38,748 bases of DNA from IMG/VR virus record IMGVR_UViG_2534682158_000014; one strand, 5' to 3'. The notes beneath the pieces are model-generated. The model did no database searches. It was not told the DNA's origin and saw nothing but the letters and a program-made list of their open reading frames with translations. Positions within the stretch are counted from its first letter, which is position 1, and the number at the start of each line of letters is the position of its first letter. Origin of the DNA: a virus. Lineage: Duplodnaviria > Heunggongvirae > Uroviricota > Caudoviricetes. Shown one piece after another: positions 2,227-33,746 of the stretch. A program made the translations under genes and the position numbers.

Positions 2227-2274
2227 TTTGCTGCTCCTCATCATATCGACCCTGCAAGGTCGGTTAGTTTCTCC

Positions 2275-2363
2275 ACAAAACAGAGAAGAACACCTGCGGT
2301 GACTGCCGCCCGGATGGATTGGGTTATGAGCCCGTCGTCCGGTGATGCTCTTCTCTGTTTTGT
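2275..2363. repeat. 18-bp imperfect inverted repeat (17/18 complementary) enclosing a 53-nt GC-rich segment
   Basis: Left arm 'acaaaacagagaagaaca' (2275-2292) and right arm 'tgctcttctctgttttgt' (2346-2363) are complementary apart from one position. It sits within a ~460-nt region that has no convincing ORF. Confidence 0.6.
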
Positions 2364-2629
2364 AAAAAGGACGGTACCAGCCGGAAGCAAGGGTACAAAC
2401 TGGTACCGCCAGGACTACACACAGCATAAAGTTGTGGTGCCGGGTGCCTCCCGGTGCCTGGCGAAGGTTGCACACCAGGCGGGTGGGTATCCACAGAAGG
2501 TCGACTGTCAGCCTCAACCTTAACCCGCGTGCGCTGAGCCGCATTCACCACAACGCTAAGGATTCTCTCTGGTTGAAAATACTTAGCTGTTATGTGCCTG
2601 CTTTTAGCCACATCAGGCGAGGTGGACCT

Positions 2630-2679
2630 GGTTATTCCCCAACAACAAGGATTCGGTTAATCTGGTTATCCCCAACAAC
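2630..2679 (+). repeat. Two direct repeats of a 16-17-nt motif upstream of the 2695 ORF
   Basis: 'ggttattccccaacaac' (2630-2646) and 'ggttatccccaacaac' (2664-2679), 34 nt apart, end 16 nt before the ATG at 2695. Candidate regulator-binding or RNA motif. Confidence 0.55.
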
Positions 2680-2694
2680 GCAAAAGGAAAAGAA

Positions 2695-3129
2695 ATGTCC
2701 GGTAATATCTATACGCTGTACAAATCCCACTGTGAAAATGTTGGAAAGTATCGGGGCATTGAAATCAGTGGGGTAGTGTCATCAGTCGAAATAAGCAAAG
2801 TTGAATCAAGGGCAACATTACTTACTCTTCTGGACCTTGTCTTAAATGAGCACCGGAAGAAATTCGGCACACCCTATAATCAGTTGAATGGGAAAAAGGC
2901 TCTGGTTCACCTTATTCTGATGAAGCATCACTGGATGCCAAAACAGATTAATGAGATGAAATTTGATGAACTTCTTCTTTCAATTCAGGATGAACTCACG
3001 CTTGATAAAATAAGTGTAACCGCCCAGAAATTTTTAGATTATCGAGACTGGAGATCACAAATTCATCACTTTGATGATTTTGACGAAAATGAATGGGATC
3101 CTAATTTGTCTGCACAATATCTAAAGTAA
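2695..3129 (+). CDS. Hypothetical protein, 144 aa, AT-rich accessory gene
   Basis: ATG preceded by 'aaaaggaaaag'. AT-rich codon usage unlike the flanking phage genes. Orientation opposes the leftward early operon and it converges on the 3101..3307 ORF. No domain recognised. Confidence 0.5.
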   Translation: MSGNIYTLYKSHCENVGKYRGIEISGVVSSVEISKVESRATLLTLLDLVLNEHRKKFGTPYNQLNGKKALVHLILMKHHWMPKQINEMKFDELLLSIQDELTLDKISVTAQKFLDYRDWRSQIHHFDDFDENEWDPNLSAQYLK

Positions 3130-3390: not shown

Positions 3391-3563
3391 GTTGCTAACG
3401 AATCATCCGGTCATTCATACGCCACCGGCGGCTACTTCGTGGGCGTCCTGCCTGTTCGTTTTTGACATTTACTGACCTCTTACGACACATGCACCGTGCA
3501 CCGTGTTGCAACCAGATTTTGTTGTAATCCTGTAGTTGGTCTGGAACAAAAGATAAAATTAAA

Positions 3564-3600
3564 TTGCGAGATATGCAAGTAATATTTGCGAAATATGCAA
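3564..3600. promoter_or_regulatory. OL-like operator pair, motif TTGCG-N6-GCAA
   Basis: 'ttgcgagatatgcaa' (3564-3578) and 'ttgcgaaatatgcaa' (3586-3600). The same half-site pattern recurs in the cI–cro intergenic region. Confidence 0.55.
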
Positions 3601-3654: not shown

Positions 3655-4347
3655 TTAATTATGTCTCTTAAGGGTTTGCGACTGACTGATTAAGACCTTT
3701 CCAAAGACCATAAATCGGTGTTCGTTTTCGCTAGTAATTCCCCATTCACGGTAAATCTGGTTATCAGAAATCACCAGCAGTTTGTCAGGAATCATTTGAA
3801 GTCTTTTAACGTATATTTTGTCATCAAAACCAAAGACATATATACCATCACCATCAAACTGATTGATGCTGACATCAACGAAGATGAGATCTCCTGGCTC
3901 AATGGTTGGACACATACTGTCCCCACGAACGTTGATAACTTTGATGTGATTGGCTGGTCGTCCGCCGAACATTGATACAGCATTATCAGTTCTGTATTCG
4001 ATGGCATGAATCACATCAATGACATCACCGCCCTGGATAAGGCCATTTCCCGCACTGGCACTGATATCCAGCATTTCAATACGGAACACATCCTTCACCT
4101 GCGCAACATCCTCATTATTACTGTTTTTATATACAGTATTACTTTTGAGGGCAGAGGTAAAGAGATCAGCAATATCAACACCTAAGCTCTTGGCAATATT
4201 ACTCAGTGTTTGTTCGGTAAATTGTTTTTGCTTACCCGTTTCTAAGCGCGAGATGTTCGCCGCATCTACTCCTATTGCTTCAGCGAGATCGGCGATTTTC
4301 ATGTTCTTCGCTTGGCGAAGTTGTCTGACTCGGTTTCCTATGTTCAT
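3655..4347 (-). CDS. cI-type prophage repressor (N-terminal HTH, C-terminal S24/LexA-like autopeptidase)
   Basis: HTH region 'RVRQLRQAKNMKIADLAEAIGVDAANISRLETGK'. C-terminal domain carries 'GDSMCPTIEPGDLIFVD', the Ser-containing S24 peptidase motif. No obvious Shine-Dalgarno before the ATG, so possibly leaderless like lambda cI from pRM. Confidence 0.85.
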   Translation of the reverse strand: MNIGNRVRQLRQAKNMKIADLAEAIGVDAANISRLETGKQKQFTEQTLSNIAKSLGVDIADLFTSALKSNTVYKNSNNEDVAQVKDVFRIEMLDISASAGNGLIQGGDVIDVIHAIEYRTDNAVSMFGGRPANHIKVINVRGDSMCPTIEPGDLIFVDVSINQFDGDGIYVFGFDDKIYVKRLQMIPDKLLVISDNQIYREWGITSENEHRFMVFGKVLISQSQTLKRHN

Positions 4348-33341: not shown

Positions 33342-33746
33342 ATGAATGATATCTATGCAGTTGTTGATAATAACGTTGTTATTAATGTCATTATCTGGGA
33401 CGGAATTTCTGAATGGAAACCAGAGGCTGGTAATTTAGTTCCGTTAAACGGCGATGCTGGCATCGGTTGGTCATATTCAGACGGAGTATTTACCGTGCCA
33501 CCTCCCCCAGAACGCTCTCACAACGCGTTAGTTGCGGAGGCTGAGCTGCAGAAATCAGCACTACTGACCGTAGCAAATAACGCAATAGCACCGCTGCAGG
33601 ATGCCGTTGATTTGGAAATGGTGACAGACGATGAACAGGCGTTACTGCTGGCGTGGAAAAAATACAGGGTACTGCTGAACCGTGTTGATACCTCAGCGGC
33701 ACCCGAAATAGAGTGGCCTACGCAACCGGGGGAGCGGGCCAGTTGA
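33342..33746 (+). CDS. Tail fibre assembly protein (Tfa)
   Basis: '[21 protein letters not shown]...' and the C-terminal '[11 protein letters not shown]' motif typical of Tfa proteins. Confidence 0.8.

Follow-up and report, generated by a model that had tools for sequence, protein, structure and literature searches.

What does a stretch of nearly half a kilobase without a credible gene do in the early region of a phage genome? This question is raised by the block at 2227–2694 of IMG/VR virus record IMGVR_UViG_2534682158_000014, a 38,748-nucleotide (nt) stretch of tailed-phage DNA that was analysed whole and is called the window here. All coordinates are those of the window, and parts of the RNA module are given on the minus strand unless stated otherwise. 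The block lies between yfdP (1864–2226, minus) and a gene of the ECs1072 family (2695–3129, plus). An initial annotation had described it as non-coding and dense in hairpins, and had proposed either a structured RNA, such as a small RNA, an RNA antitoxin or a riboregulator, or a protein-binding regulatory region. Our analysis suggests that 2245–2587 on the minus strand is probably a non-coding RNA module of the prophage early-left operon, read from the leftward early promoter (PL), where it would serve as an attenuator and as the source of a small RNA of the Hfq type. The element is a sub-threshold relative of the STnc100 small-RNA family fused to a 3′ module of the KilS/DicF type, and belongs to known families rather than to a new kind of RNA.

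Folding of the block

All repeats and hairpins listed in the initial annotation are present in the block. The inverted repeat 2275–2292 / 2346–2363 extends in a repeat scan to 25 nt (2275–2299 / 2339–2363, 84% complementary). The motif ggtaccag...ctggtacc belongs to a perfect repeat (9/9 positions, 2372–2380 / 2400–2408), which can be read by eye as an 11-base-pair (bp) stem at 2370–2380 / 2400–2410, and the motif gcctggcg...caccaggc corresponds to 2456–2463 / 2473–2480, with one mismatch, a C.A that turns into a G.U wobble when the minus strand is read instead of the plus strand. Guanine-plus-cytosine (GC) content peaks at 0.585 in 2301–2500, compared with ~0.40–0.48 in the flanks. When folded as the minus strand, 2228–2600 reaches -160.6 kcal/mol, compared with -123.0 +/- 5.1 kcal/mol for shuffled sequences (z = -7.34), and none of the 100 shuffles folds as well.

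While the structure is thereby confirmed, the block is not the single structured unit that it had been taken for: the RNA module covers ~2245–2587, possibly reaching to 2625, and 2626–2694 forms a mosaic segment of its own. At ~2625, the right edge, similarity to SfV, SfII and e14 stops, and similarity to ST64B spans 2263–2570. Nor is such a region atypical for a phage, as had been supposed, since it is matched in 2861 of 5426 complete Escherichia coli genomes, and the five-helix domain described below, taken alone, in 1853.

A five-helix domain related to STnc100

In a permissive Rfam scan, the minus strand from 2584 to 2362 matches the STnc100 family (RF02076) over model positions 1–206 of 206, with a score of 43.1 bits (E = 5.8e-8 locally, over 701 nt, and 3.2e-6 for the whole window); a scan at curated thresholds returns nothing in the whole window, so that STnc100 is shown by the permissive scan only. 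Together with helices that are kept by compensatory changes in related prophages, this match to a small-RNA family bears out the proposal of a structured RNA rather than a gene.

The Rfam match, a consensus fold and covariation delimit a five-helix domain at 2431–2554, which is present as a single copy in the window. Its closing helix P1 pairs 2546–2554 with 2431–2439. In 5′ to 3′ order there follow P2, a small invariant hairpin (~2530–2543), P3, a long-range helix around a hypervariable insert (~2479–2484 with 2523–2528), P4 (2456–2480) and P5 (2440–2455), which adjoins the 3′ strand of P1. Directly 5′ of the domain stands a further hairpin, P0 (2555–2587), which is predicted in the fold and corresponds to an inverted repeat with 13-nt arms (2555–2567 / 2575–2587, 85% complementary); at the position of P0, ST64B has a hairpin of other sequence, as read from its sequence.

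Relatives were collected from annotated phages and by a motif scan of viral contigs, giving 121 copies with 64 distinct core sequences, and the consensus fold was derived from an alignment of 26 distinct representatives from enterobacterial prophages. Across these 26 sequences, 97.6% of cells are paired, compared with 25–44% when the partners are slid by 1–3 columns. Changes on both sides, and hence compensatory, are seen in 9 of the 28 pairs; one pair in P5, for example, is U-A in 18 sequences and G-C in 8, and one in P1 is A-U in 18, U-A in 7 and G-C in one. The covariation score of 0.238 compares with 0.112 +/- 0.008 for shuffled alignments, and 0 of 500 shuffles reach it. The comparison across homologous prophages that the initial annotation had proposed as a check thus finds compensatory changes in the helices. 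Also, the domain folded alone has a minimum-energy and a centroid fold that are both identical to the consensus fold.

The strand is indicated by the same data. G.U pairs in P1, P3 and P4, and in a second hairpin downstream, are valid in the minus-strand reading only; because these wobbles and the U-run after the terminator stem described below fit the minus strand only, we place the RNA on that strand. Despite the cloverleaf-like topology of the domain, a search for transfer RNA (tRNA) and transfer-messenger RNA found none.

Two relatives, mEp460 (locus L007, ~2350–2500) and phiNP (locus L008, ~2320–2490), keep the closing-helix sequence, in a variant form in phiNP, and the KilS-like 3′ module, and the sequence between the two strands differs. 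From these two phages, it looks as if the interior of the domain were exchangeable.

A DicF/KilS-type module and a second hairpin

Directly 3′ of P1 lies a module of the DicF/KilS type (2363–2430). It consists of a conserved single-stranded stretch, UUUAUGCUGUGUGUAGUCCUG (2411–2430), the 11-bp GC-rich terminator stem (2370–2380 / 2400–2410) and a U-run, UUUUU (2364–2368), which follows the stem on the minus strand only. The module is identical to E. coli K-12 KilS at 58 of 76 positions, including a 21-nt identical block, UGCUGUGUGUAGUCCUGGCGG, and to DicF at 45 of 64, including UGGCGGUA(U/C)CAGUUU and CCG(C/U)CCUUUUU. Previous work has established KilS as a 98-nt small RNA of the Rac prophage in K-12 that was confirmed both on northern blots and in Hfq RIL-seq, which ligates and sequences interacting RNAs (PMC8175672).

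Across 20 representative loci, the single-stranded stretch is conserved, and it is constant in the window, e14, phiNP, mEp460, ST64B, 118970_sal3, phiES15 and Rac-type loci, whereas the terminator stems vary yet pair, with compensatory pair counts of UA:8/CG:2, AU:8/GC:2 and CG:8/UA:2. A constant single-stranded stretch followed by a covarying terminator stem is the usual pattern of a trans-acting small RNA of the Hfq type. Host targets of the relatives are ftsZ and others for DicF, and yncL for KilS. Judged from its sequence, the AU-rich linker that follows the closing helix (ACAAC/UUUAUG) might be a site for ribonuclease (RNase) E.

Further downstream, just upstream of yfdP, a second long hairpin (2270–2368) is formed by a 25-bp stem with a conserved branched tip, followed by UUUUGUGG. 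This hairpin, which overlaps the U-run of the first terminator, folds alone at -50.2 kcal/mol (z = -8.42). It is kept in e14, ST64B, phiNP and mEp460 with compensatory and wobble-preserving changes, and several of its invariant U.G pairs become A.C mismatches if read on the other strand. Since the stem ends in UUUUGUGG, the hairpin could be a tandem terminator and/or a processing site of the RNase III (double-strand) type.

Smaller hairpins lie at both edges of the module. A hairpin at 2245–2264 (minus), detected in the fold and in a stem-loop scan that lists it as plus, lies just upstream of the yfdP ribosome-binding site (GAGGAG), and coincides with the left edge of similarity in SfII and ST64B. 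At the upstream edge, a short hairpin at 2608–2625 (strand unassigned) sits at the mosaic boundary, where similarity to SfV, e14 and others stops (~2625).

Operon context and proposed mechanism

The module sits between the repressor region and yfdP-yfdQ-yfdR; according to the RefSeq annotation of an identical locus, yfdP (1864–2226) is the first gene downstream of it, on the same strand. Upstream, the repressor gene (3655–4347, minus), which has its own terminator, and operator-like repeats point to a leftward early promoter near 3540–3600, and a terminator scan found no minus-strand terminator between this repressor/PL region and the RNA module. The module likewise follows the repressor gene, in the sense direction, in ST64B, e14, phiES15 and phiNP.

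From this arrangement, a mechanism can be proposed. The RNA would run, 5′ to 3′, through P0, the five-helix STnc100-type junction, the single-stranded UUGCUGUGUGUAGUC with a strong intrinsic terminator, and the second, terminator-like hairpin. In the lysogen, the repressor would hold PL off. Once PL fires, the module would be transcribed, with some transcripts stopping at the first or the second terminator, which would attenuate yfdP, yfdQ, yfdR and genes beyond. The terminated product would be ~220 nt long, or a ~65–70-nt 3′ fragment if it is cut in the AU-rich linker, with a hairpin and U-tail like those of Hfq-binding small RNAs. Such a small RNA may work in trans like its relatives KilS and DicF, by means of the single-stranded stretch that is conserved, and, because no promoter was found just upstream of the RNA module, it would depend on PL and processing.

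Two tandem terminators before yfdPQR imply regulated read-through of the early-left operon. Read-through into yfdP would need antitermination, for which a conserved element at ~3395–3460 (minus), just after PL, is one candidate. This element of ~66 nt is near-identical in the window, e14 (locus L131, ~2215–2285) and ST64B (locus L003, ~2155–2225). It stands at the position of HK022 putL, resembles putL only loosely, and might explain read-through of both terminators.

Two further features of the window were noted in passing. At its left end, the C-terminal part of an IS3-family transposase (3–362, plus) abuts a yfdR-like gene (355–873, minus), and the prophage arm expected to carry the excision and integration genes may be interrupted there. 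Far from the module, at 33509–33697 (plus), lies a sub-threshold match to Rfam IS009 (score 44.9 bits with E = 2.6e-7, cut-off 117); IS009 matches have been reported in a recent preprint to be common near the prophage small RNA PasB.

Copies of the domain in other prophages

Further copies of the five-helix domain, every one of them in the sense direction, are seen in the dicF-dicB spacer of MG1655 (locus L132, 860–980), in the kilS-kilR spacer of the same strain with one mismatch to the search motif (locus L133, ~1765–1895), and, in P1 and SJ46, within the ban operon at ~30 nt upstream of tciA (loci L006 and L005, 2504–2623). The phiES15 copy is found upstream of kil, separated from that gene by a terminator of its own. 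The element found downstream among the 121 copies is dicB in 57, a KilS-like terminator in 33, kilR in 11 and P1 tciA in 3. Copies tested elsewhere score 33–43 bits and would be missed by Rfam-based annotation because these scores are below the STnc100 cut-off.

Full copies in a genome-contig scan come from Escherichia, Shigella, Klebsiella and Raoultella, to which the annotated phages add Salmonella and Cronobacter; in a Citrobacter phage, the five-helix domain has a variant interior. Of the 41 genome-contig matches, about half stem from actinobacteria and from GC-rich metagenome bins of non-enteric origin; they were set aside as chance matches, the 3′ half of the domain being absent, and a full copy in a Veillonella-labelled metagenome bin is likely to be contamination. 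The matches from Enterobacter lacked the 3′ motif under the search pattern used.

Alternative explanations

Could the stretch instead be a small protein gene, real or decayed? Such a reading draws on existing annotations: RefSeq/PGAP places a 'frameshifted hypothetical protein' on the identical locus, at the equivalent of ~2242–2552; SfIV has annotated open reading frames (ORFs), SfIV_34 and SfIV_35, across the element; and in the K-12 prophage e14, the homologous element, 97.8% identical, is annotated as the gene ymfH (103 amino acids; locus L131, 3001–3321), a clone of which has a phenotype, having been reported to trigger the retron-Sen2 toxin RcaT (bioRxiv 10.1101/2020.06.22.160242). Nevertheless, we regard a coding function as very improbable. 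With a conserved motif as the anchor, homologues do not agree on which frame remains open: that of ymfH is kept only by near-identical copies in E. coli and closes after 24 codons in ST64B and 118970_sal3, and every frame in phiES15 has at most 52 codons, despite conserved nucleotides and helices. Substitutions among the homologues keep base pairs, not codons, the ORFs that annotators picked in SfIV lie on both strands, and neither the local ORFs nor YmfH match any Pfam or NCBIfam family. A decayed coding gene, which the initial annotation had set against its own RNA proposal, is thus left with neither a conserved reading frame nor a matching protein family. The e14 ymfH overlaps a copy of the five-helix domain and the KilS-like terminator, and the retron-toxin effect of the ymfH clone might come from the RNA. 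As a sign that relatives of the RNA module are expressed, the e14 copy, as ymfH, is listed in the YmfT (e14) iModulon with other e14 genes (PMC12133099), and a literature search on 'ymfH' found no paper that treats ymfH as an RNA.

Two other explanations concern the plus-strand gene at 2695–3129, which encodes a phage-associated protein of the ECs1072 family (NCBIfam NF033230, 156 bits) and is an accessory gene running against the PL operon. That the region acts at the level of DNA, as a protein-binding control region (operators, promoter, recombination site) in which the hairpins are incidental palindromes, appears improbable to us, and applies at most to the mosaic segment 2626–2694 (plus). 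This segment holds the ribosome-binding site of the ECs1072-family gene and, just upstream of that gene, the two direct repeats that the initial annotation had noticed (2628–2646 and 2662–2679). A pattern search recovers the second copy exactly, and the first, which has one extra T, is missed by a gapless search; with a chance expectation of 0.07 for such matches, the repeats are very unlikely to be fortuitous. They had been counted as part of the structured RNA block, and belong instead to the separate segment, whose left limit is at ~2588/2626, that is, to the last ~70–110 bases of the block. The segment is portable, as PhiR49_1 has it before a different plus-strand gene, and SfV and e14 are without it. 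However, a sigma-70 scan found no consensus promoter in 2626–2694 or upstream of the 2695 ORF, and in 2245–2587, covarying paired positions and wobbles valid on one strand only point to RNA. The suggestion of a protein-binding regulatory region can therefore be kept for 2626–2694 at most, and gives way to RNA for 2245–2587. From its sequence, we take 2626–2694 to be presumably a portable cassette, with a putative promoter/operator for plus-strand accessory genes, outside the RNA module. The same place is an insertion point for genes directed against the early-left operon: it holds ECs1072 in the window and ymfI in e14, and SfV and PhiR49_1 have different ORFs there. Even less probable, to the point where we would hardly expect it, is an antitoxin or riboregulator dedicated to the 2695 ORF, a link that the initial annotation had drawn. 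What favours it is adjacency, together with the direction of the RNA module, which is co-directional with yfdP and the PL operon, so that PL transcripts would run antisense to the ORF. But the same module occurs without that ORF in e14, SfV, ST64B, phiNP and mEp460, and other genes or no annotated gene stand at its place in e14 (ymfI), SfV, PhiR49_1, ST64B and mEp460; moreover, the module does not overlap the ORF and lacks tandem repeats of the ToxI type.

The proposed attenuator and source of a trans-acting small RNA has to be weighed most carefully against a function in cis, and several observations count against our proposal. The STnc100 score of 43.1 bits stays below the Rfam gathering score of 47 bits, and the Rfam DicF model scores 15.7 bits (E = 1.3) against a cut-off of 48. 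P2 never varies, and five helices exceed what the body of a small RNA needs. Copies elsewhere directly precede dicB, kilR, kil and tciA and lack their own terminator, which fits a cis role better. A sigma-70 consensus scan found no promoter just upstream of the RNA module, in contrast to KilS, which has its own promoter in the Rac prophage (PMC8175672). Within the window, the complement of the conserved single-stranded stretch is found at the locus itself only, and no phage-internal target was seen.

The five-helix domain might accordingly be mainly a cis-acting leader, whether as a signal for processing (by RNase III or RNase E, or tRNA-like), as a switch that senses a protein or ligand, or as an antitermination or anti-Rho element; this is possible, though on the unlikely side, and the same holds for the idea that it would gate the toxic or early genes behind it, with the fused terminator here as its expression platform. 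In favour of a leader, among the 121 copies, the domain lies ~25–45 nt before the start codon of dicB (57), kilR (11), P1 tciA (3) and other genes, and it fills the dicF-dicB and kilS-kilR spacers of MG1655. If positions are counted from the start at which dicF is annotated, the 72-nt DicF end that has been published for RNase III (PMC5069750) maps within the extended closing helix, on its 5′ strand. None of the 26 sequences varies in P2 or the junction nucleotides, suggesting a specific binding partner, and riboswitches have the same layout, in which a single helix closes the junction and a terminator comes next. Furthermore, boxA-like strings, TGCTCTTT and TGCTCTTA, precede the domain in P1-type copies and in locus L118, with a weaker one, TGCTCTCA, in 118970_sal3. 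On the other side, the window has a single copy, compared with two in the nut and put systems; the domain is unlike HK022 put, a two-stem RNA of ~70 nt that comes right after the promoter (PMC9378689); here, the boxA-like string takes part in the pairing of hairpin P0; and canonical STnc100 and PasD were recovered as Hfq-bound small RNAs. Where the domain is not preceded by DicF or KilS, the boxA-like strings are fixed 2–3 nt upstream of the closing helix (P1-type loci L005, L006, L012 and L025, and loci L118 and L010). A boxA/nut function was considered for this locus and dropped, the string being degenerate in the window and forming the 3′ arm of hairpin P0 in the window and ST64B. A put-like function was considered as well; blastn of the HK022 PL region against the window matched the repressor gene only, with no put-like match at the RNA module.

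In its broadest form, a role in cis would mean that the five-helix domain is a hitherto unrecognised RNA with a cis-regulatory or processing function, widespread in enterobacterial prophages, that controls host-killing and early genes (dicB, kilR, kil, tciA, and here yfdP and beyond), which we judge to be unlikely. The topology of the domain is cloverleaf-like: the closing helix is followed two nt later by the invariant small hairpin, then by a variable arm and by a 5-bp hairpin abutting the 3′ strand. A domain of this kind could sense a protein or a small molecule, or direct cleavage by an RNase. If true, K-12 ymfH and the dicF-dicB and kilS-kilR spacers would be copies of one functional RNA element.

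Implications

Because the evidence says RNA, annotations of this element as a pseudogene, as overlapping hypothetical ORFs or as ymfH need a second look, as do the phenotypes of 'ymfH' clones. The locus joins three families that have been described separately, STnc100/PasD, KilS and DicF, as shuffled modules of one prophage system, and the STnc100-type domain stands directly before several cell-division inhibitor genes in K-12 prophages and phage P1. The K-12 copies in the dicF-dicB and kilS-kilR spacers make the function of STnc100 directly testable. The value of the finding is in the correction of annotations (ymfH and the pseudogene calls) and in the link of STnc100, KilS and DicF with kil-type genes, and its importance is moderate.

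Comparison with known systems

Like HK022 put and lambda nut, the element has RNA structure, belongs to an early operon and precedes terminators that need read-through, and boxA-like strings occur near some members of its family. The architecture is different, as put consists of ~70 nt with two stems, directly after the promoter and in two copies, and nut of boxA plus the boxB hairpin, whereas here a single 124-nt five-helix junction lies ~1 kb from PL. The HK022 PL-nun region showed no similarity in sequence, and the comparison with nut systems brought up no N-like protein.

With STnc100, the element shares a full-length model alignment, the closing helix (..UGGUG / CACCA..), an identical P5 hairpin with the 3′ strand beside it, CACCGGGAGGCACCCGGCACCA (a CCGGG-AGGCA-CCCGG hairpin next to the 3′ strand), the P4 hairpin and a 3′ intrinsic terminator, as well as a prophage-borne location in the sense direction within an operon. 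It differs in P2, which is UGCGGCUCAGCGCA here and CCCCC..GGGG in STnc100, and in its 3′ end, which is of the KilS/DicF type. The genomic position is also different: canonical STnc100/EcOnc27/PasD copies belong to the late region, where they follow stx2B and Q and have esterase and lysis genes nearby (PMC12370729, PMC12711010, bioRxiv 10.64898/2026.05.13.724894), whereas the copy described here is in the early-left operon beside yfdP, between the repressor region and that gene. STnc100/EcOnc27 and PasD bind Hfq (PMC12711010; bioRxiv 10.64898/2026.05.13.724894).

The 3′ module has the layout of KilS (b4833), with a single-stranded stretch, a terminator hairpin and a U-run; as read from the alignment, the KilS stem differs from that of the window at three pairs, each of which still pairs. 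KilS lies in the 5′ untranslated region of kilR, upstream of a copy of the five-helix domain, whereas here the order is reversed, with the domain followed by the KilS-like part. Also, the module here has no visible promoter of its own, and the gene downstream is yfdP. Compared with DicF of the Qin prophage (RF00039), the target-pairing 5′ part is not conserved here. DicF shares with the element its place in a prophage early-left operon, where it is made from a polycistronic transcript, and a physical linkage to the same five-helix domain.

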